Assembly (NCBI GenBank): GCA_947632605.1
Contig: CANRPX010000001.1
Coordinates: forward strand, 116,535 to 180,534
Length of the DNA: 64,000 bases
Direction of reading: 5' to 3'
Source: an uncultured Clostridia bacterium
Lineage (GTDB): Bacteria > Bacillota > Clostridia > TANB77 > CAG-508
A program made the position numbers and the translations under genes. Below are positions 2,917 through 26,368 of this stretch, piece by piece; position 1 is the stretch's first letter; each line of letters begins with the position of its first letter. The notes under the pieces are model-generated. The model searched no databases, was not told the origin of the DNA, and saw nothing but the letters and a program-made list of their open reading frames with translations.

Positions 2917-3083
2917 AATGTAACCTCCTAATTTTGTTTTTTTTGAGAAACAGCTACAATATACCCAATTCAATCTGCATAAATATTAACATTTCAATGT
3001 TCTGTCTCCAAAGAATATCTTTTGATGAAAAAACATAGAGCTGTTAAAACTTACACGAGACTAAATAAGATATACCTATAATT

Positions 3084-3112
3084 ATTATACCATATTTTAC
3101 ATAAAATGTTAA
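3084..3112 (-). promoter_or_regulatory. Sigma-A-type promoter of cassette A
   Basis: Minus-strand TTAACA, 17 nt, TATAAT with extended -10 (TGGTATAAT). Confidence 0.55.
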
Positions 3113-3138
3113 CATTTGTTACAAAAGTATATTTTTAG

Positions 3139-3167
3139 TTGAAAATTCATATATTTTATAGTATAAT
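3139..3167 (+). promoter_or_regulatory. Sigma-A-type promoter of MYG1-like gene (cassette B)
   Basis: TTGAAA, 17 nt, TATAAT. It lies back to back with the cassette A promoter. Confidence 0.55.
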
Positions 3168-3177
3168 GGAAAAAGTA

Positions 3178-3193
3178 TGCTAGATTTCTAGCA
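3178..3193. promoter_or_regulatory. Inverted repeat at the start of the cassette B leader (possible operator)
   Basis: TGCTAGA-tt-TCTAGCA, about 10 nt downstream of the -10 box. Confidence 0.3.
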
Positions 3194-3291
3194 CTTTTAA
3201 TATAACTCCTATTTGCAACAATAGGGTTGACATAGATTGTAAGTTAGTAGTAACAAACAACAACTGAACCAATAAGTAGGAGGAAAAAAAC

Positions 3292-4227
3292 ATGATTATT
3301 GGTGTAGAAAAAACTCGGAATAATCGCCCATTAACTTTCGGAACACATAATGGAATCTTCCATTGCGATGAGGTTATTGGCATAGCGATACTCGAGCTTG
3401 CAAACATGAATACTGATGCGTATGTTGTAAGAACAAGAAACAAGGATGTGCTAAATGGGCTTGATGTAGTAATCGATGTTGGAGGAAAAAAGTACGATCA
3501 CCATCAGGCTGGATTTGATCAAAGAAGATCAACAGGGGAAAAGTATGCTAGTGCTGGTTTGATTTGGCGAGATTTTGCGGAAAAAGCTATTAAAAATGTG
3601 GCAATCGAAGGGAAAATGTCCATTGATGATGATGAAATTAGTGTAGTCAAAGGGCAAATCGATAAGGAAATAATCATTTTTGTCGATATGGAAGACAATG
3701 GAAAAGAAGTTGGCACTCATATATTCAGCTTTATCCCAAGTTTTTACCCTGCGTGGTTTCAAGATCCCGAATATGATGAAGCTTTCATGAAGGTTGAAAG
3801 AATTGTATTTTCGATTATGAGGGAGATTATTAAGGAAAAAATCGTGCAGATTGCAACTCGGAAAGAGATTGAGAAAAAATGCAATTCTGCTAATGATGGA
3901 GTATTAGAAATTCCTGTGCAGACCATGCCTTGGCAAGAGAGTGTAGTCAATTTTAACGAAACACATGCCCAGAAGATAAACTTCGTAATTTTCCCGTATC
4001 CTGATGGAGGTTGGGCGGCACAATGTGTTCCACCATCTATGGAGAAAAAGTTCGAACAGCGCATTCCTTTTCCAAAAAAATGGGCTGGTGGAAATGAAAA
4101 AACCCTGCCCGAAGTTTCCGGAATATCGGATGCAACATTTTGCCATAATGGACGATTTTTTGTGAGAGCAAAAACAAAAGAATCTGTCTTAAAAATGTGC
4201 AAGATAGCATCTAGTGAGTTGCTTTAG
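3292..4227 (+). CDS. MYG1/UPF0160-family metal-dependent hydrolase (DHH superfamily), foreign cassette B
   Basis: N-terminal FGTHNGIFHCDE and YDHHQ motifs typical of MYG1/UPF0160. AGGAGG RBS. G+C above the backbone (29/60 at 3961-4020). Confidence 0.8.
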   Translation: MIIGVEKTRNNRPLTFGTHNGIFHCDEVIGIAILELANMNTDAYVVRTRNKDVLNGLDVVIDVGGKKYDHHQAGFDQRRSTGEKYASAGLIWRDFAEKAIKNVAIEGKMSIDDDEISVVKGQIDKEIIIFVDMEDNGKEVGTHIFSFIPSFYPAWFQDPEYDEAFMKVERIVFSIMREIIKEKIVQIATRKEIEKKCNSANDGVLEIPVQTMPWQESVVNFNETHAQKINFVIFPYPDGGWAAQCVPPSMEKKFEQRIPFPKKWAGGNEKTLPEVSGISDATFCHNGRFFVRAKTKESVLKMCKIASSELL

Positions 4228-4242
4228 GCCAACAAATTATGT

Positions 4243-4272
4243 GACAGGCGAGTGGTGTACCGCTCGCCTGTC
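4243..4272 (+). terminator. GC-rich hairpin terminator of cassette B
   Basis: gacaggcgag-N10-ctcgcctgtc followed by ttcttaatttt. Confidence 0.6.
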
Positions 4273-4296
4273 TTCTTAATTTTATTATAAAAAAAT

Positions 4297-5157
4297 TTAA
4301 ATCTTATCAGTTATAAAAATAGTAACATATTTTATGTTTAGAGATCTATGTTGTAATATATGTTTTTTTACATCTTTTTCAATTAAAGTTGCTTCTTTTA
4401 ATGTCAAATTTGGATTTAATACTAAAGTTAATTGTAACTTGTAATAAGAACCATATTTTATTAAAGTTATTTTCAAATTATTTATATTTTCTTCTTTTAA
4501 TATGACTTCTTTAACACGATTAATTAATTCTTCATTTTCTTCAACTTCACCAATGACAGATAGAGAATTTTCAACAATAATATTATAAGATGTTTTAAAT
4601 ACAATTATACCTATTAAAACAGATCCAACAATATCTGAATATTTTAAAATAGGAAGCTGTTTTGTAAATTGTAAAAGAATAGTTATAATCATTACACCAA
4701 TTGTAGAATATAAATCAGCTGAAGATTCTTTTACAGAAGTTATTAATAGTTGACTATGAGTTTTTGTTCCAACTTTATGCATAATTAAAATAGCAACTAA
4801 TTTTAAAAGAAAAACAATTATTAAAAGTACTAAAACTGAAATAGGAGGGGTAATAGTTTCTTTTCCAAAAGCATTTACTATAATAAATATTGCAAGAGCT
4901 AGAAGTATAATTCCAACAAATAAATTGGTTAGATATTCAACTTTTCCAAATCCAAAAGGATGACTTTTTGTTGGCTTCTTTTTTGTTATTTTTTCTGTTC
5001 CAATACAAACTACATCTGTGAAAAAATCACTAAATGTATGCATTCCATCTGCAAATAAAGAACTTAATCCGAAAAACATACCTCCAAATAATTTAATAAT
5101 TGAAATTATTAAATTATTTATCATACTATAAGTTAATACTTTAGATTCCTCTTTCAT
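4297..5157 (-). CDS. Cation diffusion facilitator (CDF) family transporter
   Basis: Six TM segments, HTFSDFFTD and SSADLYS motifs, C-terminal cytoplasmic domain. Confidence 0.8.
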   Translation of the reverse strand: MKEESKVLTYSMINNLIISIIKLFGGMFFGLSSLFADGMHTFSDFFTDVVCIGTEKITKKKPTKSHPFGFGKVEYLTNLFVGIILLALAIFIIVNAFGKETITPPISVLVLLIIVFLLKLVAILIMHKVGTKTHSQLLITSVKESSADLYSTIGVMIITILLQFTKQLPILKYSDIVGSVLIGIIVFKTSYNIIVENSLSVIGEVEENEELINRVKEVILKEENINNLKITLIKYGSYYKLQLTLVLNPNLTLKEATLIEKDVKKHILQHRSLNIKYVTIFITDKI

Positions 5158-5317
5158 ATATTTTCCTCCTAAATTGATTTGTTTAATTATATTATAAAAA
5201 AAGCTAAAATTCTATATTGTCAAATAAATGTAATGAAAAATAAATAAAATTGATTTTATTGTTAATAATACTTTGATGTGTTATAATATGAAAAAATAAA
5301 AAAGGAATAATATTATT

Positions 5318-5791
5318 ATGAATATAGGGTTTTATGCTGGAAGTTTTGATCCATTTACAAATGGTCATTTGCATGTAATAAAAAGATCAGAAAAATTATT
5401 TGATAAAGTTGTTGTAGGTATTGGAATACATCCAAGCAAAACTAGAAGATATAACAATGAAATAATGAAAAATGCTATTAAAGAAGTATTAAAACGAGAA
5501 AAAATAAAAAATGTTGAAGTAATTACTTATGATAATCTTTCAGTTGATGCAGCAAAATCACATAATGCTAATTTTCTTATTCGTGGTATTAGAAATGGAA
5601 TGGATTATGATTATGAAGAAAATCTTGCTTCAATAAATGAAGAAATTTCAGGGTTAGATACTATTTATATAAGAGCAGGAAGATTAGGAAATATAAGTTC
5701 AAGTATTGTTATGGAGCTTGTGAGAAATGGAAAAGATGTTTCAAAATATGTTCCAAAAGAAATTCTAAAAATAATAAATGAAGATAATTAA
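5318..5791 (+). CDS. coaD: Phosphopantetheine adenylyltransferase-like nucleotidyltransferase
   Basis: GSFDPFTNGH nucleotidyltransferase motif. Size about 157 aa. Confidence 0.7.
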   Translation: MNIGFYAGSFDPFTNGHLHVIKRSEKLFDKVVVGIGIHPSKTRRYNNEIMKNAIKEVLKREKIKNVEVITYDNLSVDAAKSHNANFLIRGIRNGMDYDYEENLASINEEISGLDTIYIRAGRLGNISSSIVMELVRNGKDVSKYVPKEILKIINEDN

Positions 5792-5807
5792 AAAAGTAGG
5801 AGAAATC

Positions 5808-6587
5808 CTACTTTAAATTTTTTTCTAAAACTTTTATTACTTCATTATGAACAATACCATTGCTAATAATTGCACCATTTATATTAGTATCATATCTTTG
5901 TTCATTGCCAAATAAATCTGTAACTTTTCCACCAGCTTCTTCAACGATAACTTTAACTGCTGCTATATCGCAGTTTTTGTGCTTAGTACCGGGAAAAATT
6001 GATAAAGAAAAATCTCCATTAGCAATACACATACATGCTCTTATGACACTTCCAATGCTAACAAAATAAGAGTTTTTGCTAAGTTCTGATATTGTACTAT
6101 ATATATTATAATCAGATTTTGACCACATATCGTAATTGCAGACTGTTTTTATATTATTTAATTCATAATCATTTACATGTATTTTTTCATTATTTCTATA
6201 AGCACCTTTACCTTTAATTGCAGAATAAAGATTGTCTGTAAATGGATCATAAACAACACCAATTAAAGGAGCACCATCAATTACTAATGCAAGAGAAAAA
6301 ACAGCTACTGGTATATGTCTTGCATACATAGCAGTACCATCAACTGGATCACATACCCACACATAATTAGATTTACCAAATTGTTCTTCTTCACCATCAA
6401 CTGAATGTGTAGGAAAATTTTCTTTTACTTTTTTTACTAAAAAACTATTAATTTCTTTATCTGCTTTTGTGACAATTGTTTGATCAAATTTATAATCAGC
6501 ACCATTATTTTCTTTAAAATATTTATGCATAATTTTTCCAGCTTCAATAGCTATTTCTTTAGCAAATTTTAAATATTCTTCTTCCAT
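5808..6587 (-). CDS. Inositol monophosphatase family protein
   Basis: WVCDPVDGT and GEEE metal-binding motifs. Confidence 0.8.
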   Translation of the reverse strand: MEEEYLKFAKEIAIEAGKIMHKYFKENNGADYKFDQTIVTKADKEINSFLVKKVKENFPTHSVDGEEEQFGKSNYVWVCDPVDGTAMYARHIPVAVFSLALVIDGAPLIGVVYDPFTDNLYSAIKGKGAYRNNEKIHVNDYELNNIKTVCNYDMWSKSDYNIYSTISELSKNSYFVSIGSVIRACMCIANGDFSLSIFPGTKHKNCDIAAVKVIVEEAGGKVTDLFGNEQRYDTNINGAIISNGIVHNEVIKVLEKNLK

Positions 6588-6716
6588 ATTTTCTCCTTAA
6601 TAATAATTAACTTTAAAATATAAATTTATTATAACGTTAATTTATTGATGTTTCAATAATCTTGTGTTAAAATAATATAGCAGAATTGTAAGATTAAATA
6701 TAAAAGGAATGAAAAT

Positions 6717-7157
6717 ATGGAAATAATTTCAAACTCTGAAGAAGAAACAATTGAACTTGGAAAAAAAGTAGCTAAAAATTTAGAAAAAGGAAATATAATT
6801 ATTCTTTCTGGGAATTTAGGTTCTGGTAAGACTAAATTCACTGAAGGAGTATTAACTTATTTTGGATTACAAAATGAAATTTCTAGCCCAACATTTACTA
6901 TTGTTAATGAATATAATGCTAATAATATTAATATATATCATTTTGATGTTTATAGATTGAGTGATGTTGATGAATTTGAAGCAATTGGTGGAGAAGAATA
7001 TTTTGAAAAAGGAATTTGCATAATAGAATGGGGAGAATTGATAGAACCAATACTTCCTGAAAATTATGTAAAAATTACATTTTCTAGAAACTTAGAAAAT
7101 GAAAATACAAGAAATATTAAAATAGATTGTTTTGGAGATATTAATTTAGATTTATAA
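6717..7157 (+). CDS. tsaE: tRNA t6A37 biosynthesis ATPase TsaE
   Basis: LSGNLGSGKT P-loop, SPTFTIVNEY motif, about 146 aa. Confidence 0.85.
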   Translation: MEIISNSEEETIELGKKVAKNLEKGNIIILSGNLGSGKTKFTEGVLTYFGLQNEISSPTFTIVNEYNANNINIYHFDVYRLSDVDEFEAIGGEEYFEKGICIIEWGELIEPILPENYVKITFSRNLENENTRNIKIDCFGDINLDL

Positions 7158-7162
7158 AAAAA

Positions 7163-7192
7163 GCAAGGGACCAGTTAGGTCCCTGCTTTTTT
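7163..7192. terminator. GC-rich bidirectional hairpin between tsaE and cassette C
   Basis: gcaagggacc-agtta-ggtccctgc flanked by an A-run and a T-run. The stop codon of the minus-strand gene lies in the loop. Confidence 0.6.
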
Positions 7193-7732
7193 CTGATATA
7201 ACACAGTGAGATCGAATTGGATACTCGACCGGATGAAGAAATGGAATTGCTTTGTTTCGTAATGATATCCTGTGCAAAACTGATTGGCATGTTTCTCCCA
7301 GTCAAAATCTGCACGAATCAAAGTAAATCTATAAATAGAATCATTGTGCAAATTGAGATAAGAAGAATAACGAGTTGTAATAATTGTCGATTGATAGTGT
7401 GCCAAAAAATGTGCCAGCTCAAATGGATCGTTTGACACTTTAAATATGGCTGTGATGTTTTCGGGAACAGGTAAGGAAAAGGACTCTCCGATGTGGAGCT
7501 TCGTATAGATTTCCATAAAACCCGATATTCCGTCAATGTCAAATTTTTCCTTTAAAAATGAATCAAAAACATTCTTAGGAGCAGAGACACTCACATTTAA
7601 GGATGAATTATCAATTGTTTGCAATTTGTCTACAGTTTCACATTTGGATAAGTTACGATGGTCACGTTCGGTTTCTTCAAAAGGATTTTCCAAATTAGTT
7701 AAAATATGGAAAATATTAGAATCTTCATTCAT
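7175..7732 (-). CDS. Hypothetical protein (foreign cassette C), about 185 aa
   Basis: G+C above the backbone (24/60 at 7261-7320). AAGGAGG lies 7 nt before the second ATG (7730-7732). No family recognised. The last six codons are encoded by the terminator arm and T-run. Confidence 0.6.
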   Translation of the reverse strand: MNEDSNIFHILTNLENPFEETERDHRNLSKCETVDKLQTIDNSSLNVSVSAPKNVFDSFLKEKFDIDGISGFMEIYTKLHIGESFSLPVPENITAIFKVSNDPFELAHFLAHYQSTIITTRYSSYLNLHNDSIYRFTLIRADFDWEKHANQFCTGYHYETKQFHFFIRSSIQFDLTVLYQKKAGT

Positions 7733-7800
7733 ACGCATACCTCCTTTTAAGTTTATAGTTCGAATGAAGTGTTGTGTTTAGAACACGGTGTTACAAAATT

Positions 7801-7829
7801 ATATTAACATAAAATCGACATAAAATCAA
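7801..7829 (-). promoter_or_regulatory. Putative promoter of cassette C
   Basis: Minus-strand TTGATT, 17 nt, TAATAT. Confidence 0.45.
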
Positions 7830-7889
7830 ATTATGGTTTACAAATTAGATAAAATATTATAAAATATTACAGTAATTGGAGGAATAATA

Positions 7890-8555
7890 ATGAAAATTTT
7901 AGCAATAGATACATCAAGTAAAATATGTTCTGTGGCTTTGTTAGAAGATAATGTAGTTATAGATAAAAATGAATTAGATGATGGTAAAACTCATTCTGAA
8001 AATCTTATGCCATTATTAGATGAGTTACTTAAGAGAAATAAAATTAATATTAAACAAATTGAATTATTAGCTTGCTCAGTTGGACCTGGTTCTTTTACTG
8101 GAATAAGAATTGGAGTAGCTACAATAAAACCAATAGCAGAAGTTTTAAATATTAAAATAGCAAGTGTTACTTCTTTAGAGACATTAGCTAGAATTATAGA
8201 AGAAAATGATACAATAGTTTCATTAATAGATGCTAGAAATAATCAAGTATATTGTGGTATTTTTGATAAAAATTATAATAAAAAAGAAGATTATATTGCA
8301 GATGATATAAATGAAGCAATCGAACATATAAAAAAGTATAATGATATTATTTGTGTTGGTGATGGTGCAATATTACATAAAGATTTATTAAATGAAAAAA
8401 TAAAAGATATTAAATTTGCCGAAGAAAATAATGAATCAGCTGTGAATGTTGGAAAAATTGGATATAAAAAGTTTTTAGAAAATGATTTATGTTCAGCAGA
8501 TTCTATTGTTCCAATTTATTTAAGAAAATCACAAGCAGAACGACTAAAAAAATAA
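7890..8555 (+). CDS. tsaB: tRNA t6A37 biosynthesis protein TsaB
   Basis: MKILAIDTSS start, GPGSFTGIRIG motif. Confidence 0.85.
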   Translation: MKILAIDTSSKICSVALLEDNVVIDKNELDDGKTHSENLMPLLDELLKRNKINIKQIELLACSVGPGSFTGIRIGVATIKPIAEVLNIKIASVTSLETLARIIEENDTIVSLIDARNNQVYCGIFDKNYNKKEDYIADDINEAIEHIKKYNDIICVGDGAILHKDLLNEKIKDIKFAEENNESAVNVGKIGYKKFLENDLCSADSIVPIYLRKSQAERLKK

Positions 8556-9038
8556 ATGACAATATTTAAATTAAAAATAGGAGAAAATAAAATTGAAAAT
8601 ATGAGTATTACTATTAAAAAAATGAATTTAAAAGATTATGAAAAGATAAAAGATAATCTAAAAAAAGACTTTGATGACTTTTGGACTCCAACTGTTTTAG
8701 AAAGTGAATTAAAAAATAAAAATTCTAAATATATTGTGGCAAAAGAAAACGAAGAAATTCTTGGATTTGCTGGAATAATTATTTTGCCTGATGATGTAGA
8801 AATTACAAATATTGTTGTAAAAAAAGAAGAAAGAAAAAAAGGTATAGGAAAAAGTCTTTTAGAGAAAATAATAGAAATATCAAAAGAAACAAAAAGAAAT
8901 ATAATAAGTTTAGAAGTAAATGAAAAAAATTTAGTAGCAATAAATTTATATAAAAAATTTGGATTTGAAAAAGTTGGCCAAAGGAAAAAATATTATAACG
9001 GAACGGATGATGCAGTTATTATGAGTAGAAAAATTTAG
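8556..9038 (+). CDS. rimI: Ribosomal-protein-alanine N-acetyltransferase (GNAT)
   Basis: GNAT motif RKKGIGKSLL. Position after tsaB. An alternative start at 8601 is possible. Confidence 0.75.
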   Translation: MTIFKLKIGENKIENMSITIKKMNLKDYEKIKDNLKKDFDDFWTPTVLESELKNKNSKYIVAKENEEILGFAGIIILPDDVEITNIVVKKEERKKGIGKSLLEKIIEISKETKRNIISLEVNEKNLVAINLYKKFGFEKVGQRKKYYNGTDDAVIMSRKI

Positions 9039-9155
9039 TTTGATATGTAGATTAATGTTGAATAATGTAAAATTTTTAAAATAGTAATTGCATTATTCTT
9101 TTTTTTGATATAAAATTATTCTAGAATGTAACTTTATCGGAGGAAAAAAGTACTA

Positions 9156-11561
9156 ATGAGAAAGAGAAATGAACTAACGCCAAGGGATTTAAAGGATATT
9201 TGTAATCCAAATCAATTTAAATTTGAAACAACAAAAGAACTTGTAGATACAAATGATTTAATATACGGCCAAGAGAGAGGAATCAAGGCATTAGAATTTG
9301 GTACAGATATTGATATTAAAGGCTATAATCTTTATTTAGAGGGGCCTTCAGGTGTTGGAAAAACTATGTACACAAAAAAGTTCTTGGATAAAAAAGCCGA
9401 AAAAGAAAAAGTTCCTAATGATTGGGTATATATTTATAATTTCGACAATCCAAATGAACCAATAGCAGTTTCATTTCCAGCAGGACAAGGAAGTGTCTTT
9501 AAATCAACAATGGAAGGTTTTGTAAAAGATGTTAGAAAAGACATCAAAAAAACCTTTAATAATGATGACTTCGAAAAAGAAAAACAGATTATAAAGCAAG
9601 AATTTGAAGAAAAAAGAGATGCTTTATTAAATAAATTAAATCAAAAAACAATGATACAAGGTTTTCAGGTAAAATCTACTGAAAATGGTGTATATATGAT
9701 GCCAGTATTAGATGGCAAAACACTTGCAGAAGAAGAATTTGAAGAATTAGATGAATCTATAAAAAAAGAATTTGAAGAAAGATCAGCACTAGTTCAAGAA
9801 CAGATTTTTGAAGCTTTAGCAGAAATAAAATCAATTGAAAAAGCTGCTGAAAGAAAAATAGATGAATGGCAATCAAATATAGCATTAATGACAATAAATG
9901 TTCATATTAATTCAATAAAAGCAAATTATAAAAGAAATAAAAAAGTTGTAGTTTACTTAGACAATATCAAAAAAGACATATTGAAAAATATAAATTGTTT
10001 TTTAGCATCAGATACAGAGCCTAAAATTCCACAACCACCTCAAGTACAACAAATGTCAAAAACTGAAAAAGAACCATGGCTTAATTATAGAGTAAATTTG
10101 TTTATAGATAATAGTAAACTTGAAGGTGCACCAGTTATTATGGATACAAACTATTCATATTATAATATTTTTGGTGGATTAGAATATGAAAATCAATTTG
10201 GTGCATTAAAAACAGATTATATGATGATAAAACCAGGATTACTTCATCAAGCAAATGGTGGTTATATCATTTTTCAAGCAAAAGATATTTTAGCAAATGG
10301 TTTATGTTATGAAGCATTAAAAAAAGCATTGAAAATAAAAGAATTATCAATTGAAAATATGGCAGAACAAAGAGGTGGAATGCTATTAGTTGCTTTAAAA
10401 CCAGAGCCAATACCATTAGATTTAAAAGTTTTATTAATTGGAAATTCAAATATTTATCATACACTTTTGTCAATGGATGAAGATTTTAGAAAATTATTTA
10501 AAATTAAAGTTGAGTTTGAAGAAGATGCTCCAAAAACAACTGAAAATATAGAAAGATTAAGTAACTTTGTTAGAAGTTTTTGTACACAAGAAGAATTGTT
10601 AGATTTAGATAAAGAAGCAATGGCAAAACTAGTAGAAGTAACTTCTAAAATGGCTGGAGATAAAGAAAAATTATCTACACAATTTAGTGAAATAGGCGAA
10701 ATTGTTGGAGAAGCTTCTGTATGGGCGAAAAAAGATAAACAAAAAATAATAACTAAAGATTATATACAAAAAGCATTAAATGAAAGAATTGATAGAATAA
10801 AGAAATATGATACTAGATATCTTCAAATGATAAAAGATGAAGCATTATTAATTGATACAGATGGTTTTGAAGTAGGACAAATTAATGGATTAACTGTAAT
10901 AACAATAGGAGATTATTCTTTTGGAAAACCTGCTAGAATTACAGCAAGTACTTATATGGGAAAAGAAGGAATCATAAACATTGAAAGAGAAGTTGATATG
11001 TCTGGTTCTTCACATTCTAAAGGTGTTTTAATCTTAACAGGATATTTAGGAGATCAATTTGCACAAGATATACCATTATCACTAACTGCTAATATTTGTT
11101 TTGAACAATTATATGGAGGAGTTGATGGAGATAGTGCATCAAGTACAGAAGCTTATGCAATTTTATCTAGCTTATCAGAAATGCCAATAAATCAGTCAAT
11201 TGCAGTTACTGGTTCTATAAATCAAAAAGGATATATTCAACCAATAGGTGGAGTAAATGAAAAAATAGAAGGTTTCTATCAAATTTGTAAACTAAAAGGA
11301 TTTAATGGAGAACAAGGAGTAATCATACCAAAACAAAATGTTAGAAACTTATATTTAGATGATGAAATTATAGATGCAGTAAAAAAAGGAAAATTTCATA
11401 TATATGCTATTTCTACTATTGATGAAGGAATTGAAATTTTGACAGGAGTTCCAGCTGGTAAAAAAGATAGAAATGGTAATTTCCCACTTGGAACAGTTAA
11501 TTATCTTGTACATGAAAAATTAAAGAAATTTGCAAAAGCAGAAAGAGCAGCAGCTAAATAA
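9156..11561 (+). CDS. Lon-like protease with a large helical insertion in the AAA module (LonC/COG1067-like)
   Basis: GPSGVGKT P-loop, long charged helical insert, C-terminal Lon proteolytic domain (GVDGDSASS ... GGVNEKIEGF). Confidence 0.8.
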   Translation: MRKRNELTPRDLKDICNPNQFKFETTKELVDTNDLIYGQERGIKALEFGTDIDIKGYNLYLEGPSGVGKTMYTKKFLDKKAEKEKVPNDWVYIYNFDNPNEPIAVSFPAGQGSVFKSTMEGFVKDVRKDIKKTFNNDDFEKEKQIIKQEFEEKRDALLNKLNQKTMIQGFQVKSTENGVYMMPVLDGKTLAEEEFEELDESIKKEFEERSALVQEQIFEALAEIKSIEKAAERKIDEWQSNIALMTINVHINSIKANYKRNKKVVVYLDNIKKDILKNINCFLASDTEPKIPQPPQVQQMSKTEKEPWLNYRVNLFIDNSKLEGAPVIMDTNYSYYNIFGGLEYENQFGALKTDYMMIKPGLLHQANGGYIIFQAKDILANGLCYEALKKALKIKELSIENMAEQRGGMLLVALKPEPIPLDLKVLLIGNSNIYHTLLSMDEDFRKLFKIKVEFEEDAPKTTENIERLSNFVRSFCTQEELLDLDKEAMAKLVEVTSKMAGDKEKLSTQFSEIGEIVGEASVWAKKDKQKIITKDYIQKALNERIDRIKKYDTRYLQMIKDEALLIDTDGFEVGQINGLTVITIGDYSFGKPARITASTYMGKEGIINIEREVDMSGSSHSKGVLILTGYLGDQFAQDIPLSLTANICFEQLYGGVDGDSASSTEAYAILSSLSEMPINQSIAVTGSINQKGYIQPIGGVNEKIEGFYQICKLKGFNGEQGVIIPKQNVRNLYLDDEIIDAVKKGKFHIYAISTIDEGIEILTGVPAGKKDRNGNFPLGTVNYLVHEKLKKFAKAERAAAK

Positions 11562-11589
11562 ATTTAATATTGTTTATTAAAATTAAAAT

Positions 11590-11620
11590 AAAAGTAGATA
11601 AAAAATCTACTTTTATTTTT
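11590..11620 (+). terminator. Rho-independent terminator
   Basis: aaaagtagat-aaaa-atctactttt followed by a T-run. Confidence 0.6.
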
Positions 11621-11693
11621 TGTTTAAATTTAAAATTGTTAATTAAACAAAGAAAAAATGGATATACTAAATAAAATTGGAAAGGAGATTTTT

Positions 11694-12761: not shown

Positions 12762-12803
12762 TTTTTAATAAATTATATGTTATAAATTTTGTTAGAAAAA
12801 TAT

Positions 12804-12832
12804 TGACAAATTCAATTTTTAAAAATACAATT
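12804..12832 (+). promoter_or_regulatory. Sigma-A promoter of the ABC/GntR operon
   Basis: TTGACA, 17 nt, TACAAT. Confidence 0.6.
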
Positions 12833-12860
12833 GTACTAGCACAAATAGTACAATTGTATT
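12826..12860. promoter_or_regulatory. Perfect 14-bp inverted repeat, candidate GntR-family operator
   Basis: ATACAATTGTACTA-gcacaaa-TAGTACAATTGTAT overlaps the -10 box. It contains the GT-N-AC core typical of GntR operators. Confidence 0.55.
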
Positions 12861-12912
12861 TTTATTTTACAATAAAATATAAATAACTTTTGTTATTTAG
12901 AAAGGGGATTTT

Positions 12913-16168: not shown

Positions 16169-16234
16169 AAAAATTCTATATAAAAAATTATATAACGTTG
16201 TAAAATGTTTTTATAAATTTTATATAGAATTTTT
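16169..16234 (+). terminator. Long AT-only inverted repeat (17-bp arms, 32-nt loop), possible terminator
   Basis: aaaaattctatataaaa ... ttttatatagaattttt. Confidence 0.35.
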
Positions 16235-16337
16235 AATTATAAATAAAATCTTACTAATAGAAAATTTTTATTTACTTTAAAAATTTTTAAATATATAATT
16301 AATAAATAAATTTATTGAATGAGAAAGGAAAAGGTCA

Positions 16338-19300: not shown

Positions 19301-19715
19301 TACTTTAAAATCTATGAATTTAGTTGTATATGTTTTAATTATTTCAGCAGGACTTTTAGCATTTATAGTTCTTTATAATTTAGCAAATATTAATATAAGT
19401 GAAAGAATTAGAGAACTTGCAACAATAAAAGTTTTAGGATTTTATGATAAAGAAGTATATGATTATATAACAAGAGAAATTGTTTTACTTACAATTATAG
19501 GAATTCTATTAGGATTAATTTTTGGATTTTTCTTAAGTTCATTTATTTTAAAAACTTGTGAAATAGAAATTCTTAGATTCAAAAGATTAATAAGATTACC
19601 AAGTTATATTTATGCTTGTGTTATAACAATTATTTTCACTATAATTGTAAATTGTATAACATATTTTTCTTTAAAGAAAATAGATATGATAGAATCTTTG
19701 AAAAGTGTAGAATAA
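16338..19715 (+). CDS. FtsX/MacB-type ABC permease (two FtsX modules) with a coiled-coil insertion of about 330 aa
   Basis: TM1, extracytoplasmic domain, long heptad-rich E/K/L/N region (about aa 230-560), 3 TM helices, a second extracytoplasmic domain, 3 TM helices. Confidence 0.8.
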   Translation: MKKALLKDSIKEIKKTYKRFISILLMAFLGVGFFAGVRATSPDMDLTIDSYLDKRNVYDIKLVSTLGLTDEDINEISKLENIEKVVGTFSEDVFIDFEDEEAVVKIYALEKDINQVDLIEGNLPENIDECVIEESMKNAKGISIGDYLEIEENLENEDENQSFKNTKLKVVGTVKSPLYISRDRGTTTLGSGKISYYMYVNKENISSDIYTEVDILAKGTKNLISLREEYNNKIEEVENELNAIKEERQNARYHELIDEANQKLDDAQKEFDEKKADAEQKIKDAENEIEKGKIEIADGEKEILDGENKLQEGKDEAANEFALAEGQLAEAETTIIKSQEELNKGISQLEQKKKEAESGISQLKFGIEEINKQLSDLTSKKNSIEAGLNQIALIDDNISKLKILLETETEPDKIEEINSQINKLESDKNALISQGITQENLDNLNSGLNECQTQKQLLENKLNSINSELANAQNQINDAQNKLNNAWQELNNSKVTFANTKADTETKLKSSEDELEKGKRELADAKKELQDGEKELLDKKEEFNREITDAEAKLIDAREKVNDIETAKWYIFGRNDDSGFNSFKQDTDNVKKLGEAFPIVFFIIAVLISLTSMSRMVEEERVQIGTLKALGYNRLQIMSKYIIYSLLASVIGGILGSVFGLKFFPTVIITIYQMMYDISELKVVFNVYYASLGIGIMTVCIVGSTIYTAIKELNSTPAEMMRPKAPKAGKRVLLEKIPFIWNKLNFTQKVTLRNMFRYKKRFLMTVVGICGCTALILTGFGLKDPISKIMDFQYIDIYDYDALIGLKDTLTEEEKASLISDLENKEEISKCVQIYMSSESIRKNDVKKDTQIVVTSNPEELENVIRLKDLKTGEKLKLNDDEIIITDKLSQLINAGIGDEITLIDSDNNEYKAKIGGITEHYISHYIYMTENLYEKTFGKEMNSNVLLTQYAHEISEEKEDLLSKEILENSKVASVTLSSYLMQTINDTLKSMNLVVYVLIISAGLLAFIVLYNLANINISERIRELATIKVLGFYDKEVYDYITREIVLLTIIGILLGLIFGFFLSSFILKTCEIEILRFKRLIRLPSYIYACVITIIFTIIVNCITYFSLKKIDMIESLKSVE

Positions 19716-19773
19716 TTTTAAAATTAATAAATACTTAAAAATAAAAAATATATAATTACATTTAATAAAAAAT

Positions 19774-19802
19774 TTGTGTATTTTAGAAAATAATGGTATA
19801 AT
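19774..19802 (+). promoter_or_regulatory. Promoter of the large ncRNA
   Basis: TTGTGT, 17 nt, TATAAT with extended -10 TGG. Confidence 0.55.
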
Positions 19803-19808
19803 ATTATT

Positions 19809-20370
19809 GTTGGTGCACTATTCTAGTGTATACTCCTGTTATGAGGGTGGGCCTAAAAATCTACTAAAAAGTATTATCAGTCGAAGTTTTTCGGAGTACT
19901 GCGCGTTACGCCCAGTTGTGCGTGGCTTTGGAAAAAAGATTTTAGGATAGTTTATAATGGCATATAAATGATTCCTGATTTCATTGAGACTTATTCATTT
20001 GAATAGGTAAAACCATATAGATAATAATATGGTGGTAATGACTGTCTTGAGTGATTTATTGGAATTAATTCGATAATCATAAAATTAATTTGGCCAAATT
20101 GATTTTATGATTGAATTATGAAACTTAGATTGCAAAAGGGACTAATAACAGGCTAGGATATTAAAAGAAAATTTCTAGAGTGTTTGCTTAGAATAAAATA
20201 AGCATGGAAACTCGGGGATTAAGGTACGGATTTAAGTGGTGATCTGGCGACATTTTGAAAAAAATGTGGAGCTTTTAAATGGAAACAGCTTTTTAGTAAT
20301 AAAAAGTAATGCTTCGAGAAACTCTGCTAGACCTAAACCGTAAAGTTTACTCGAGTTTTCACCAATATAC
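19809..20370 (+). ncRNA. Large structured non-coding RNA, OLE-like (tentative)
   Basis: About 560 nt with no ORF and G+C above the backbone. The 5' TTGGTG pairs with the 3' CACCAA. Contains a 17-bp hairpin at 20077-20110 and several smaller hairpins. It has its own promoter and lies directly upstream of a small 4-TM protein, as for OLE/oapA. Confidence 0.5.
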
Positions 20371-20409
20371 TTATAAAAAACGATAACTTAATTTGGAGAA
20401 AAATATAAT

Positions 20410-20940
20410 ATGAAAGAAAAACAAAAAGGTAATAATAATTCGTGGGTAATAGTAATAGCTATTACCACATTTATTTTATCATTATTTTTTTCGTTTGTAT
20501 CAAATACAGCTATATCAAAGCTTAATATAATAGCAGGATTAATTGTTTTAATAATAGTAATTTTAATTGGTGTAGTATTTGATTTAATAGGTGTCGCTGT
20601 TACGGTTGCAAATGAAGAAGATTTTCATGCACAAGCTAGTAAAAAAATAAAAGGTGCAAAAACATCTATAAAAATGATAAGAAATTCAGCAAAAGTATCT
20701 AACTTTTGTGCTGATGTAATTGGAGATATATGTGGAGTATTAAGTGGTGCAATAAGTGCGATGATTGCTCTTAAAATTACTCAAAATTATGGAGTAAATG
20801 AAAATATACAAATAATTTTTAGTGCAATAGTCGCATCTATTACAGTAGGAGGAAAAGCAATAACAAAAGAAATTGCAAAAAGAAATTCAACAAAGATAGT
20901 TACAATAATAAGTAAATTTGTTTCTTTTGGAGAAAAATAA
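20410..20940 (+). CDS. oapA: Small 4-TM membrane protein, OapA-like (tentative)
   Basis: 176 aa with four predicted TM helices. Position immediately after the large ncRNA. Confidence 0.5.
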   Translation: MKEKQKGNNNSWVIVIAITTFILSLFFSFVSNTAISKLNIIAGLIVLIIVILIGVVFDLIGVAVTVANEEDFHAQASKKIKGAKTSIKMIRNSAKVSNFCADVIGDICGVLSGAISAMIALKITQNYGVNENIQIIFSAIVASITVGGKAITKEIAKRNSTKIVTIISKFVSFGEK

Positions 20941-20957
20941 TTTATATAAATATGAAA

Positions 20958-20981
20958 ATGACCGCCAAATGAGGCGGTCAT
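20958..20981. terminator. GC-rich bidirectional hairpin between the oapA-like gene and cassette D
   Basis: atgaccgcc-aaatga-ggcggtcat. Confidence 0.55.
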
Positions 20982-21054
20982 TACCTTTATATAAGACTAA
21001 TGGAATCTGTTAATAAAGGATTTAGAAGGTAGAATCGGTGGAAACTTGTTTCCT

Positions 21055-21705
21055 TTACAGGATTACGTGTGTCTCCACAAATTCATCGTGCCCGACGCGG
21101 TACACTCCCTTGGTAGTGATGATGAGATAGTCGCCGATTTGAAGTTGAGTGCTTTCAGCCTCGCCATTCTCATCAGTTTCCATCCACTCATCAACGCAGG
21201 CAGTGATGCCAGAATCGTAGAGCTCCTTGGTGACCTCGATGCAGCGGCGTTCTTCAGAGGCAGTGGTGACCAGGAGAAGATCTTTCTTCATGTTCGCGAA
21301 CATATCAGCGAGCATTTTCTTATCTGTCTCGTCGGCGATACCACTCAGGATGGTGCAGAGGTTGATGAGACCTTCGGCCGAATTGGTGCCTACGACTTTG
21401 ACGTCTTTGGCGCCGGAAACTTTGGAGAATTTCCAGCAATAGCAATCGGGCCGGCCGGACATCAGAACCTTGCCACCGATGACACGAAGTACCGTCTGGA
21501 AAACGGCTTCATCGTAGATGTTACCGGAGGGCTGCTCCTTGGTGCTGACACACTGCTTGAAGATGAGACCCATGAGGCCGAGATCCGACCACTTGGGAAA
21601 AACGATGTTTTGCATCTCAAGCTTCAGGCAGTCCCGCTGGCAGTCCAGCTCAGCGCTCTTGTTGATGATCTCTTGGGTGACTTGCTGTTTGTTTAATTTA
21701 GCCAT
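21055..21705 (-). CDS. Hypothetical protein (foreign cassette D), 216 aa
   Basis: 31/60 G+C at 21061-21120. TTAGGAGG lies 8 nt before the ATG. No family recognised. Confidence 0.65.
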   Translation of the reverse strand: MAKLNKQQVTQEIINKSAELDCQRDCLKLEMQNIVFPKWSDLGLMGLIFKQCVSTKEQPSGNIYDEAVFQTVLRVIGGKVLMSGRPDCYCWKFSKVSGAKDVKVVGTNSAEGLINLCTILSGIADETDKKMLADMFANMKKDLLLVTTASEERRCIEVTKELYDSGITACVDEWMETDENGEAESTQLQIGDYLIITTKGVYRVGHDEFVETHVIL

Positions 21706-21754
21706 GAAATATACCTCCTAAAATTGTCTAAAATTGTTAATGGCTTACAACATA

Positions 21755-21783
21755 ATTATACCATAATTTACATAAAAATACAA
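21755..21783 (-). promoter_or_regulatory. Promoter of cassette D
   Basis: Minus-strand TTGTAT, 17 nt, TATAAT with extended -10 TGG. Confidence 0.5.
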
Positions 21784-21813
21784 TTAGTAAACTAATATAA
21801 AATTATTAATTAT

Positions 21814-21850
21814 ATAAATTTATTAATTTCTTGATAATTAATAAATTTAT
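21814..21850. repeat. 14-bp perfect AT-only inverted repeat overlapping the holA promoter
   Basis: ataaatttattaat-ttcttgata-attaataaatttat. Confidence 0.35.
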
Positions 21851-21858
21851 GATATACT
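21831..21858 (+). promoter_or_regulatory. Putative holA promoter
   Basis: TTGATA, 16 nt, TATACT. Confidence 0.4.
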
Positions 21859-21879
21859 AGTTACATTAAAGGAGAAAAA

Positions 21880-22897
21880 ATGGTTTTAAGTTATGATGAT
21901 TTAAATAAAAGTATTGATTCTGGATTAAATTCAATATATTTATTATATGGTAATGAACAATACTTAATTGAAAATGCAATTAATAGAATAAAGAAAAAAT
22001 TTCGGAGAAAAATTATTGGGAATAAATTATGTTTTAATTGATGAATCAAATTTAGAAGATATTATTCCTAATATTGAAATGCCTGCATTTGGATATGATA
22101 AAAAACTTATAATAATAAAAAATACAAGTTTATTTAAAAAAGATGGAAGAAAAAAATCAGAAACACCGATTCAAGAAAAAATTTTAGATTTTATTAAAAA
22201 TAATATTGATATTATAAAAGAATCTGTAGTTTTAGTATTTGTAAATCAAGAAGTAGACAAAAATACTGTTTTTGAAGAAATTGAAAAAAATGGAATAGTT
22301 TGTATGATAGAAGAATTAAAACCATATCAATTAGTAAAAAAACTAAAACAAATATGTTCTTTATATAAAGTAAATGTAGATGATGTAACTTTAAATTATT
22401 TAGTTGAAACATCTGGAACAAGCCTTCAAAATTTAATAAATGAAATAAGAAAATTAATTGAATATGCAGGAGAAAATGGAAAAATAACAATTGATGATGT
22501 GAATAATCTAGCAATAAAACAAATGGAAAGTGTTATTTTTGAACTTACAGATAACTTAGCAATAAGAAAAATAGATAAATCATTAGAAATTTTAGATAAT
22601 TTAATTTATCAAAAAGAACCAATACAAAAAATATTAATAACTCTATATAATCATTTTAAAAAAATATATTTATGTTTAATAGCAGTAGAAGAAAATAAAG
22701 ATATAGTATTTTCTTTATCTTTAAAACCAAATCAAACATTTTTAGTTTCAAAATATAAAAAACAAGCATCTTACTTTAAAAAGAATGAATTAAGAAAAAT
22801 TTTGAAAGAATTTATAGAATTAGATTATAATTCAAAAAATGGAAAAATAGATGTGGATATTGGATTAAGAAGTATATTGTGTAATTATTGTAGTTAA
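21880..22897 (+). pseudogene. holA: DNA polymerase III delta subunit, interrupted by a 1-nt frameshift near 22003
   Basis: ATG at 21880 with a GGAG RBS reads MVLSYDDLNKSI...KKKF and then stops. Deleting the c in tttCgga restores ...KFGEKLLGINYVLIDESN, which joins the ORF at 22016. Confidence 0.7.
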
Positions 22898-23003
22898 AAT
22901 ACATACATAATTTACTTGAAAAAAAACACTTATAATGATATAAATAATAAAATAAAAATAATAATTTATTTCTATTTTTAATAAATACTTTATGGAGACA
23001 ATT

Positions 23004-24236
23004 ATGATTAATGTTAATGAAAACTTTTTAAATTTACAAGATAGTTATCTTTTTTCTACAATAGCAAAAAAGGTAGCAGAATTTCAAAAAAATAATCCAG
23101 ACAAAAAGATTATAAAATTAGGAATAGGAGATGTTACAAGACCAATAGTACCAGCAGTTTTAGATGCTATGCATAAAGCTGTTGATGAATTAGGAAATTT
23201 AGAAACTTTTAGAGGTTATGGACCAGAGCAAGGTTATGAATTCTTAAGAGAAAAAATTGCAGAATTTGATTATGCAAAAAGAGGAGTAAAAATATCTGTT
23301 GATGAAATTTTTGTATCAGATGGTGCAAAATGTGATTGTGGAAATATAGGAGACATCTTAGGAATAGATAATGTAGTTGCAATTACAGATCCTGTATATC
23401 CAGTATATTTAGACACAAATGTTATGGCAGGAAGAAGTGGAAATTATAATAGCGAAACTGGAAAATATGAAAATATAATTTATATTCCAGCTACTGCTGA
23501 AAACAATTTTATACCTGAATTTCCAGATAGAGTTCCAGATATGATTTATTTGTGTTTTCCAAATAATCCAACAGGAACAACACTTTCAAAATCAGAATTA
23601 AAAAAATGGGTTGATTATGCAAAAGAAAATCATTCATTAATTTTGTTTGATTCTGCATACGAAGCATTTATTTCTGAAGAAAATGTACCACATACTATAT
23701 ATGAAATAGAAGGTGCTAAAGAAGTTGCTATTGAATTTAGAAGTTTTTCTAAAACAGCAGGGTTTACAGGCGTAAGATGTGCATATACTGTTGTTCCAAA
23801 GGAACTAAATGCATATACAAAAAATGGAGAAAAAATACAATTAAATTCATTATGGAATAGAAGACATGGTACTAAATTTAATGGAGTATCATATCCAGTT
23901 CAAAGAGCAGCAGAAGCTGTTTATTCTGAAAATGGGCAAAAACAAATAAAAGAGAATATAGCTTATTATATGAATAATGCTAAAATAATAAAAGAAGGAT
24001 TACAATCAGCAGGATTTACAGTTTATGGAGGAGTAAATGCTCCATATATTTGGCTTAAAGTACCAGAAGGATTAACTTCTTGGGAATTTTTTGATAAGCT
24101 TTTAAATGAAGTAAATGTAGTTGGAACACCTGGTGTTGGATTTGGACCAAGTGGAGAAGGTTATTTTAGATTAACTGCATTTGGAACAAAAGAAAGCACA
24201 ATTAAAGCTATTGAAAGAATAAAAAATATGAAATAA
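23004..24236 (+). CDS. dapL: LL-diaminopimelate aminotransferase
   Basis: N-terminal [16 protein letters not shown] and class-I aminotransferase body ([12 protein letters not shown]). The start may be 22992 or 23004. Confidence 0.8.
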
Positions 24237-24291
24237 GATAGATTTAAATTTTAGAAATTTAAAAAAAAAAATAATTTAGGAGGAAAATTTT

Positions 24292-25791
24292 ATGGCTGAA
24301 GTATTAAAAGATGTATCAAGAACTTTTAATGAATTTCTTTTGTTACCAAACTTAACAGATGAAAGATGCATACCAGCAAATGTAAGTTTAAAAACACCAC
24401 TTGTAAAATTTAAAAAAGGAGAAGAACCAAAATATAGTGCAAATTTACCAATGGTTTCTGCAATAATGCAATCAGTATCAGGTGAGAAAATGGCTATTGC
24501 ACTTGCAAGAGAAGGTGGTTGTTCATTTATATTTGGTGCACAATCAATAGAATCACAAGCTCAAATGGTTAGAAATGTAAAAAAATATAAAGCTGGTTTT
24601 ATAACTAGTGATTCTAATGTTACAAGTACTACAACAATTAAAGAATTAATGGAATTAATTGAACAAACGGGTCATTCAACTGTTATGATAACAGAAGATG
24701 GTACAGCCAAAGGAAAATTTTTAGGATTAGTAACTGATAAAGATTTTAGACTTTCAAGAGTTGATTTAAATGAACCAGTAAGTAATTATATGGTTCCAAG
24801 AGAAAAAATTGTATTTGCAAGAAAAGGAATTTCTTTACATGATGCAAATGATATAATTTGGGACAATAAAATAAGTTGTTTACCAATTTTAGATGAAGAT
24901 GATAATTTATATAGCTTAGTTTTTAGAAAAGATTATGAATCTGATAAAGAAAATCCTAATTCTTTATTAGATGAAAATAAAAGATTTATTGTAGGAGCTG
25001 GAATAAATACTAGAGATTATGAAGAAAGAATACCAGCACTAGTAGAAGCAGGTGTTGACTTAATTTGTATGGATTCTTCAGATGGATATTCTGTATGGCA
25101 AAAAAATACAATAGATTGGGTAAGAAAAAATTATGGAGATTCAGTAAAAATCGGAGCTGGAAACATAGTAGATAAAGAAGGATTTTATTATTTAGCTGAA
25201 AATGGCGCTGATTTTATAAAAGTTGGAGTAGGCGGAGGATCAATTTGTATAACTCGTGAAACAAAAGGTATCGGTAGAGGGCAAGCATCAGCTTTAATGG
25301 ATGTTGTTGAAGCTAGAAATGAATATTTTGAACGTACAGGTGTATATATTCCAATTTGTGCTGATGGAGGAATTGTACATGATTATCATATAACATTAGC
25401 TTTGGCAATGGGTGCTGATTTTGTTATGATGGGAAGATATTTTGCAAGATTTGATGAAAGCCCTACAAGAATAGTTAAAAGAAATGGTACTTTTATGAAA
25501 GAATATTGGGGTGAAGGCTCAAATAGGGCTAGAAATTGGCAAAGATATGATTTAGGTGGAGAAGCAAAGAATAAATTAGTTTTCGAAGAAGGTGTAGATT
25601 CATTTATACCTTATGCAGGAAGACTAAAAGATAATGTTGCAATTACAGTTGCCAAAATAAAATCAACAATGTGTAATTGTGGCTCAATAACTATAAAAGA
25701 ACTTCATGAAAAAGCTAGATTAACCATAGTATCAGATATTAGTATAAAAGAAGGCGGAGCACATGATGTTCAGCTAAAAGAAAGAATGTAA
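24292..25791 (+). CDS. guaB: IMP dehydrogenase family protein
   Basis: TIM-barrel with a CBS insert. Active-site-loop-like [10 protein letters not shown]. Confidence 0.7.
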
Positions 25792-25814
25792 TAAATGTAT
25801 TTATAAAATGCAGA

Positions 25815-25841
25815 AGAGCAGGCATTGCACCTGCTCTTTTT
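25815..25841. terminator. GC-rich bidirectional hairpin between the guaB-like gene and cassette E
   Basis: agagcagg-cattgca-cctgctct followed by a T-run. Confidence 0.6.
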
Positions 25842-25851
25842 AAACTGCTTT

Positions 25852-26280
25852 TCAATCGTCAACCAAGACGAAAATGAACGGCTCTTCGGAATATTCTTTG
25901 GTAATGTCCTCTAAGCTAACCTTTGCGGCAGGTTCCTTGTCATCGGGTTTGTGCTCGAAGCTCCCGTCAGGGTTTCTCCTTGCAACATGGAAGTCATCAT
26001 ATTCCATACCCCAAAGGGAACGATACGCGTACCAGCCCCAGAGCCAGAATGCGGTTTTGCCGTTGGTTTCTTCGATGGAACTTACCTGCCGAACACGGAT
26101 GCCGTATCGTTTCAGAGTTTCCACGAAGGAGTTAACAGGACTGTTATCAAAGTACCGACCTGTGTCGGGATCGCGGTAGCGGTCGAGGACTACAACCTCT
26201 TCAACACCGATTGCAAACCCGAGGCAGTTAAATTTTGAGATGTTCATTGTCTTGTTTGCTTGGTCTGCTGTAAAAAACAT
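25852..26280 (-). CDS. Hypothetical protein (foreign cassette E), 142 aa
   Basis: 30/60 G+C at 25981-26040. AAGGAGG lies 9 nt before the ATG at 26278-26280. No family recognised. Confidence 0.65.
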   Translation of the reverse strand: MFFTADQANKTMNISKFNCLGFAIGVEEVVVLDRYRDPDTGRYFDNSPVNSFVETLKRYGIRVRQVSSIEETNGKTAFWLWGWYAYRSLWGMEYDDFHVARRNPDGSFEHKPDDKEPAAKVSLEDITKEYSEEPFIFVLVDD

Positions 26281-26339
26281 ACGTAATAACCTCCTTGCCA
26301 TAGTGGCGATGCGTGTTTTGTTAAAAAGCTTACATAATA

Positions 26340-26368
26340 ATTATACCATATTTTATATATAAAATCAA
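26340..26368 (-). promoter_or_regulatory. Promoter of cassette E
   Basis: Minus-strand TTGATT, 17 nt, TATAAT with extended -10 TGG. Confidence 0.5.

Follow-up and report, generated by a model that had tools for sequence, protein, structure and literature searches.

Three genes of strongly deviant base composition, here called A, D and E, lie in a 64,000-nt window (the whole stretch of DNA that was analyzed, from contig CANRPX010000001.1), and their promoters resemble one another beyond the AT-rich promoter consensus of the clade. We propose that these promoters form a subtype defined by a word in the spacer between the –35 and –10 elements, TTTTATGTAAA, so that the diagnostic part would be in the spacer and not in the leader. 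On balance, we lean toward the view that this word is a functional element, either an operator or a determinant of promoter strength, that puts the three cassettes under a shared regime.

The window is natural chromosomal DNA; it comes from an uncultured spore-former of the Clostridia with a very AT-rich genome (overall GC ~25%). Its backbone, which features the ornate large extremophilic (OLE) RNA, IMPDH, DapL, holA, YmdB, RecA, EF-P and SpoVS, has a GC content at third codon positions (GC3) of 0.05–0.15 (about 0.08) among the window genes. Base composition sets six genes apart as outliers: B, C and F are mildly shifted (GC3 ~0.30–0.34), and A, D and E are extreme, with a GC content of 0.48–0.52 versus 0.25 in the flanks and a GC3 of 0.55–0.67 versus 0.08. 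Each of these three consists of its own promoter, a leader, a strong Shine–Dalgarno (SD) sequence, a single open reading frame (ORF) rich in C-ending codons and a hairpin terminator, and each unit is placed antisense between AT-rich housekeeping genes. The neighbors are holA, DapL, IMPDH, YmdB and coaD, that is, chromosomal housekeeping genes and not a prophage.

Similarity of the A, D and E promoters

Reading of the minus strand confirmed the three promoter–leader sequences that a first-pass annotation of this DNA had reported (Table 1). A –35-like hexamer stands 17 bp from TATAAT in all three, and that of D, TTGTAT, matches TTGACA at three of six positions. TATGG directly precedes TATAAT in A, D and E, which is the TGn (Firmicute TRTG) type of extended –10. 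This shared extended –10 had been put forward as part of the common module; it is indeed present at all three sites, but it is generic, because the OLE RNA promoter carries an exact copy of ATGGTATAAT, the fourth match in the window (19793–19802). In Firmicute promoters, a TRTG extended –10, a start 7 bp after the –10 and a Y(–1)R(+1) start element are established (PMC12641261), and the conservation of the spacer sequence is normally poor in promoters (PMC8695583).

When up to three mismatches were allowed, the 23-mer TTTTATGTAAAATATGGTATAAT matched the window three times, exactly at A, D and E (0.01 matches expected). Generic sigma-70-like matches were no commoner in the window than in shuffled sequences, and we therefore built a stricter null from other promoters, namely 115 other TGnTATAAT promoter-like sites taken from related loci. 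The spacers of A and D are identical at 13 of 14 positions, those of A and E at 12 and those of D and E at 11; only 0.08%, 0.37% and 1% of the pairs of other promoters reached 13, 12 and 11 of 14, respectively. We also derived a position matrix from 76 independent metagenome sites; it scored A, D and E at 24–37 bits (Table 1), compared with 7.2 bits for the OLE promoter and at most 4 bits for the rest of the 64 kb. The matches of the 23-mer, the pair statistics and the gap in matrix scores all bear out the earlier claim that the similarity exceeds a generic AT-rich consensus.

Judged from their sequence, the three sites are genuine strong promoters of the housekeeping type (sigma-A, sigma-70 type), and sigma-A is the factor predicted to use them. 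C and F have related promoters, both of which carry, as had been annotated, TTGATTTTAT at –35 and GTAAC 6–7 nt after the –10; TTGATTTTAT is also present at the –35 of E.

Conservation of the spacer word and its association with GC3-shifted genes

The conserved element in relatives is the spacer word TTTTATGTAAA, which has the near-palindromic core TTAYRTAA about 20–27 bp upstream of the predicted start. In the A family, TTTTATGT(A/T)AAT..ATGGTATAAT-(A/T)ATTATA is kept at all four loci (the window, L032, L033 and L035). The contexts of the A homologues differ, comprising a lactamase-fold gene and PGA_cap, a Mob_Pre relaxase, and a leucine-rich repeat (LRR) protein with polysaccharide-synthesis genes; across these three unrelated contexts, the cassette was inherited as a unit from promoter to terminator, with its own terminator kept. 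In the D family, TTGnnn-17-TGnTATAAT was found at every Clostridia locus examined (n = 17). The exact word TTATGTAA occupies the identical spacer position at 7 of these 17 loci, down to 59% protein identity, and variants occur in others (TTACATAA or TTAACATAA in five further loci, TTATAATAA in two). The orthologue of E in a congener (L012) has the promoter TTGATT-TTTAGCATAAAATATGG-TATAAT. We suggest that the spacer word was kept by selection in the A and D families, which are unrelated to each other, over different genera and genomic contexts.

A scan of a metagenome collection with TTTTATGTWAA-N3-4-TGGTATAAT returned at least 120 loci. Among the matches listed, TTG was present at –35 in 73% of 111 unique sites, the median contig GC was 0.30, and the ORFs behind the word were extremely diverse, ~90% of them being without a known domain. 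At those metagenome loci long enough to provide a background, 73% of the ORFs behind the word (n = 30) displayed a GC3 shift of >0.15, compared with 16% of the ORFs behind TTG/TGnTATAAT promoters without the word at the same loci (n = 19; Fisher P = 1e-4; odds ratio ~15); the base rate of GC3-shifted genes is ~10%. At individual loci, for example L059, L070, L098, L108, L134 and L153, an ORF rich in C at third codon positions (C3) directly follows a word promoter and is situated between AT-rich housekeeping genes. At loci chosen only for carrying D, the module was upstream of none of 134 ordinary genes. The proposed confinement to GC-shifted genes holds within the window, and elsewhere it takes the form of a strong association. 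In low-GC gut Clostridia, the word would then stand mostly before GC3-shifted orphan genes.

The leader box and the transcription start

The first-pass annotation had located the shared function elsewhere, in a box GTAAG-N2-5-TTAACA just after the start, which would be the operator or leader-RNA element of one regulator in this species. The box is present at all three sites, in A about 23 nt further downstream and within a loop. GTAAG-N2-6-TTAACA matches the window three times, always behind the A, D and E promoters (0.33 matches expected), and random triples of promoter leaders shared such a gapped 5+6 motif in only 79 of 200,000 trials, which favors a real element. However, the pattern was fitted to the three sites after they had been seen, so that the test within the window is circular, and relatives do not keep the box. 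The D orthologues have ATAATTGCCATACAAAA in L012 and GTAAGAGCCATAAGC in L013, the E orthologue of L012 has GTAACCTGTTGATTT, and in the A homologues the equivalent leader position, in the loop that holds the displaced box of A, is TTTTGCACCTTATGG. Among 226 promoter-like sites from related loci and the window, the full box was found only at the window's own sites, and TTAACA occurred in six leaders. GTAA(C/G) at the start position is at most weakly enriched (8/86 versus 1.9 expected, with a shuffle maximum of also 8). Without conservation in relatives and without recurrence among the 226 sites, the box fails as the conserved operator of one regulator, and we consider that model improbable.

The first base of GTAAG is 7 bp past the –10, which places G at +1 and T at –1, and from this position the G of GTAAG is most likely the start site. 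We suggest that GTAAG is a start element, which would explain its presence, and that TTAACA is a species-level coincidence. Since the conserved element lies in the spacer, a common regulator could still act on the three promoters, at a site other than the leader box. The annotated feature is in part supported: it is real and specific, and its functional part was wrongly placed.

As for known cis-regulatory RNA leaders, Rfam at the gathering threshold returned only OLE RNA and two transfer RNAs (tRNAs) in the window, and at E ≤ 1 it returned nothing relevant in the A-homologue loci. A structured leader of ~150 nt is kept in the A homologues of all three contexts, and its long-range stem shows compensatory change, GUCUC...GAGAC in the window corresponding to ACUCC...GGAGU in L032, L033 and L035. 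The A-family leader may be a new cis-regulatory or stabilizing leader.

Expression and codon usage

RNA evidence came from the assembled contigs of one metatranscriptome run (X9) in which this species is represented. Full-length RNA contigs covered A (1928–3053, depth 16.3, one mismatch, including 137 nt of the AT-rich leader), D (20975–21727, depth 24, from just past the predicted start to the terminator stem) and E (25847–26296, depth 13). B was covered in full length (3299–4234, depth 12.4), F in part (depth 4.2) and OLE RNA over 19837–20244 at a depth of 8.5, lower than those of A, D and E; C had no RNA coverage in this run. Coverage of the AT-rich neighbors and of 18 kb of backbone was limited to four fragments of 170–255 nt (depth 2–4). 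The 5΄ ends of the contigs are 21–37 nt downstream of the predicted starts, and the contigs do not resolve the 5΄ ends. With depth taken as a crude measure, we read the A, D and E cassettes as real, abundant and monocistronic transcripts.

A, D and E also have a codon dialect in common. Their C3 is 0.38–0.43 and their A3 0.10–0.21, ATA is absent (0%), and ATC, CTC, TCC, ACC, GGC and CGN are preferred; in the backbone, C3 is 0.03, AGA accounts for 94% of Arg codons and ATA for 49% of Ile codons. Translational optimization of highly expressed genes was rejected as the cause of the high GC3. In native genes of presumed high expression, GC3 is low (0.07–0.11 for EF-P, RecA, RpoZ and SpoVS in the window and for ribosomal protein S15 in L070), and the dialect is therefore not accounted for by ordinary translational selection.

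Evolutionary history of the cassettes

In the species collection, two metagenome-assembled genomes (MAGs) from rabbit gut are nearest to this genome. D is found at the same locus in two congeners with 88% and 84% identity, the neighbor proteins being 83–96% identical. E has a 62%-identical counterpart in one congener (L012) and is absent from the other (L013). At the IMPDH–YmdB site, E is present in the window (25792–26460) and its counterpart in L012 (4860–5577), and in L013 (3706–5950) ~2.2 kb of AT-rich opposite-strand ORFs replace E. Outside the species, no relative of A exceeds 58% identity, even with congener MAGs included in the database, and A appears to be species-specific. Because D is syntenic, E patchy and A without a close relative, the three cassettes are of different ages, which excludes the single vector or single insertion that had been offered as one explanation of the shared sequence. 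Engineered or vector DNA was likewise ruled out: identical copies of the D protein are encoded in the same context on 13 natural contigs, some from rabbit gut and some from other samples.

The similarity could nevertheless reflect shared descent only, with the cassettes drawn from one mobile gene pool, for instance accessory genes of phages or plasmids in low-GC Clostridia, that has its own dialect and promoter type, so that the promoters are inherited and no shared regulation exists at present. The A cassette moves from promoter to terminator between unrelated contexts, once beside the Mob_Pre relaxase; E is patchy among congeners; and D keeps synteny with the window only within and near the genus, its homologues outside the genus being non-syntenic and including genes in Candidatus Saccharibacteria MAGs (L026–L031; GC 0.48–0.60 versus 0.38–0.43 in the host). 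Small tandem paralogous GC3-rich cassettes, each with its own copy of a TTTTATGTAAA-type promoter, occur at L109 (880–2620; three cassettes) and at L134 (1898–2680). The large share of cassette proteins without a known domain, noted above among the matches listed, is also typical of mobile accessory genes.

Other observations argue against descent alone. Neither A nor D matched any plasmid or phage by tblastn, and a PHROG search was empty. The relaxase beside the A homologue is itself AT-rich (GC3 0.19) and is thus a carrier without the dialect. The saccharibacterial D genes lack this promoter and have a different upstream region containing a hairpin. The spacer word is still present in homologues so divergent that neutral intergenic DNA can no longer be aligned. 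D, which is syntenic across the genus, has an undecayed GC3 (0.67, 0.58 and 0.68 in the window and the two congeners), and in a rough parsimony comparison with DapL on an unrooted tree of three taxa, its GC-to-AT change per GC site was similar and its synonymous AT-to-GC change per AT site was ~4 times as high. D tentatively seems to be at a compositional equilibrium of its own and not decaying. We regard descent from a common pool without present-day shared regulation as a serious alternative that is less probable than a functional spacer element.

Evaluation of the spacer element

Several observations weigh against a functional spacer element. The identity of the A, D and E spacers is partly that of the T-tract/A-tract/TATGG consensus, TTTTT(A/T)TTAAAATATGG, that the ordinary promoter spacers of this clade already show at the 115 other sites. 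In the D family, two orientations of the core are offset by 1 bp, which weakens a strict palindromic-operator reading. Control scans with three permuted words, which covered a viral collection, returned 49, 23 and 28 loci versus 18 for the real word; the permuted-word hits in viral contigs were also mostly real promoters, and a global over-representation of the spacer word was not shown in that collection. TTAYRTAA was present in 18 of the 115 promoters (0.9 expected), a count inflated by homologous D promoters and by the choice of loci. At the loci chosen only for carrying D, the module was found at only 1 of 16 other GC3-shifted ORFs and therefore marks particular families and not every outlier. 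Finally, contig depth in one run is a poor measure of expression, and a GC bias of the library could favor GC-rich transcripts; OLE RNA at ~30% GC was still recovered, and the A contig runs through its AT-rich leader.

Some of these points, namely the resemblance to the generic spacer consensus and the frequency of permuted words in viral contigs, together with the extended –10 of the OLE promoter and the ordinary frequency of generic sigma-70-like matches, would also suit three strong promoters that had converged by chance on the AT-rich consensus, with nothing specific in common. However, no more than 1% of the pairs of other promoters have spacers identical at 11–13 of 14 positions, the matrix scores leave a gap between 24–37 and ≤7 bits, the word is conserved in A and D homologues, and among the matches listed it is tied to GC3-shifted genes. 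We consider chance convergence very improbable.

We therefore keep a slight preference for a functional spacer element. The word would serve recognition in one of two ways, as the operator of a conserved dimeric regulator or as a contact that determines how strong the promoter is, and through it the cassettes would come under one shared and very active transcriptional regime. We also entertain, as an unlikely possibility, that low-GC gut Clostridia keep by selection a dispersed set of orphan genes in a C-ending dialect, marked by a dedicated spacer element. Within that reading, it is similarly speculative that codon usage and promoter together define a distinct expression regime, for example one that depends on a developmental state or on the status of nucleotides or tRNA modification, in which case the odd composition would be functional and not a relic of transfer.

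If a functional spacer element is correct, a short and easily scanned promoter signature flags hidden autonomous, strongly transcribed orphan genes in AT-rich gut Clostridia, for two of which (A and D) there are confident structure models matching no solved structure. The promoter would be a candidate strong expression part for these organisms. A question raised by D is how a gene keeps its GC3 near 0.6 over the lifetime of a genus in a genome of GC3 0.08. D is at odds with the usual view that compositional outliers are recently acquired foreign DNA, and in MAGs of this kind, horizontal transfer or contamination should be called from composition with caution.

Cassette proteins and other features of the window

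The A family comprises 81 clusters and the D family at least 175, neither with a Pfam domain. Searches of Pfam, NCBIfam, PADLOC and PHROGs were all without hits for A, D and C, for which no known function was found, and E had only a sub-threshold DUF7689 hit. AlphaFold models of D and A, with predicted local distance difference test (pLDDT) scores of 82 and 88, respectively, had no significant match in PDB or BFVD, and PDB profile searches with A and D were empty. Repeats of the choline-binding (cell-wall-binding) type were hit in the cassette set, and these hits probably belong to F.

Features of the cassettes and their surroundings are listed in Table 1. In the 3΄ untranslated region (UTR) of D, the stem-loop AAATCCTTTATTAACAGATTCCATTAGTCTTATATAAAGG (20983–21054, minus strand) directly precedes the terminator and is kept in L012, L013, L015, L011 and L020, and not at other D loci. 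The GC skew is positive and the plus strand carries nearly all backbone genes, whereas four of the six outliers (A, C, D and E) are on the minus strand; these four are probably transcribed head-on to replication. tRNA-Asn(GTT) (39002–39077) and tRNA-Trp(CCA) (58235–58309) are both on this minority strand as well.

Table 1. Positions of the cassette elements and of neighboring features in the window
Feature	Positions	Strand	Description	Basis
Promoter A	3084..3112	–	–35 TTAACA, 17-bp spacer TTTTATGTAAAATATGG (TRTG-type extended –10), –10 TATAAT	35.8 bits; 11/12 match, TG present
Leader A	2917..3077	–	~160 nt; GTAAGTTTTAACA in loop; long-range stem GUCUC...GAGAC	Sequence; RNA contig reaches 3053
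Leader box A	3054–3042	–	GTAAGTTTTAACA	Sequence read
Gene A	1969..2916	–	315 aa, orphan family, four invariant Cys, GC3 0.62	ORF; model pLDDT 88
Terminator A	1907..1929	–	Hairpin GGGGGTCC...GGGCCCCC, weak T-run	Sequence read; RNA contig ends at 1928; simple scan did not list it
Promoter D	21755..21783	–	TTGTAT-TTTTATGTAAATTATGG-TATAAT	37.1 bits; kept in D homologues
Leader D	21706..21748	–	Predicted start G 21748 (GTAAG), then CCATTAACAA, then SD AGGAGG	Sequence
Leader box D	21748–21735	–	GTAAGCCATTAACA	Sequence read
Gene D	21055..21705	–	216 aa, at least 175 clusters, no Pfam domain, GC3 0.67	ORF; model pLDDT 82
3΄ UTR D	20957..21054	–	Conserved stem-loop (CCTTTAT...ATAAAGG), then intrinsic terminator 20982–20957	Sequence
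Promoter E	26340..26368	–	TTGATT-TTATATATAAAATATGG-TATAAT	23.7 bits
Leader E	26281..26333	–	GTAAGCTTTTTAACAA, then GCATCGCCACTATGGCAAG hairpin-like segment, then SD	Sequence
Leader box E	26333–26319	–	GTAAGCTTTTTAACA	Sequence read
Gene E	25852..26280	–	142 aa, 3 clusters, weak DUF7689 hit, GC3 0.55	ORF
Terminator E	25814..25838	–	Intrinsic terminator	Sequence; clear T-run as in D
Gene B	3292–4227	+	MYG1/UPF0160-family protein, GC3 0.33, divergent from A	Pfam E = 4.8e-63
Terminator B	4243–4272	+	Strong terminator	Sequence
Related promoter of C	7802..7830 (±2 nt)	–	TTGATT-TTATGTCGATTTTATGT-TAATAT, then GTAAC	Sequence
OLE RNA promoter	Ends 19802	+	TTGTGT-17-TGGTATAAT	Sequence read
OLE RNA	19794–20381	+	Ornate large extremophilic RNA	Rfam, 259.7 bits
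Related promoter of F	32274..32302 (±2 nt)	+	TTGATT-TTATTTACATAATATGT-TACAAT; spacer core in TTACATAA orientation, opposite	Sequence; partial RNA contig
Gene F	32370–33767	+	465 aa, GC3 0.30

Comparison with known systems

Literature searches turned up neither a promoter subtype of this kind nor, for AT-rich Clostridia, any account of gene classes that are conserved and GC3-rich. The sporulation sigma factors and the boxes of CodY, PerR and PadR were compared by eye, and none fits all three sites. Integron gene cassettes, in which a promoterless ORF with a 3΄ attC site stands beside an integrase and a common Pc promoter, were also rejected, given that each unit has its own promoter and terminator, that the units are dispersed over 24 kb and that there is no integrase nearby.

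The closest promoter class is that of the Firmicute sigma-A '–16 region' promoters, which share with A, D and E a TTGnnn –35, a 17-bp spacer, TATGG abutting TATAAT and an AT-rich discriminator, as well as a purine start ~7 bp downstream that is preceded by a pyrimidine, as predicted for A, D and E. To this layout, A, D and E add the word TTTTATGTAAA in the upstream half of the spacer, which is found across families and is tied to one class of genes.

Fur/PerR-type 7-1-7 boxes (TTATAATnATTATAA) may overlap a –10. A and its homologues show a likeness to them in TATAAT-N-ATTATA, a perfect 6-1-6 palindrome over the –10. However, the second half-site matches at only three of six positions in D and five of six in E, so that the palindrome is not common to all three, and AT-rich discriminators readily yield such matches.

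Anti-CRISPR and other anti-defense loci have strong promoters with inverted-repeat operators for Aca repressors. The cassettes resemble them in their diverse small orphan proteins, very strong promoters and a palindromic element in or near the core promoter. In contrast to these loci, the cassettes have no adjacent helix-turn-helix (aca-like) gene, are monocistronic and chromosomal, include the syntenic D and gave no hits in PADLOC or PHROGs.

In overall architecture, the cassettes recall phage 'morons', autonomous promoter–gene–terminator units of deviant base composition (PMC3594210). Both consist of a single gene with its own promoter and hairpin terminator, differ sharply in composition from their flanks and lie between unrelated genes, and the A family also moves as a whole unit. 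However, A, D and E are located between chromosomal housekeeping genes, no phage homologues were found and D is syntenic across the genus; moreover, unlike morons, many unrelated cassettes here have one promoter subtype and one codon dialect.

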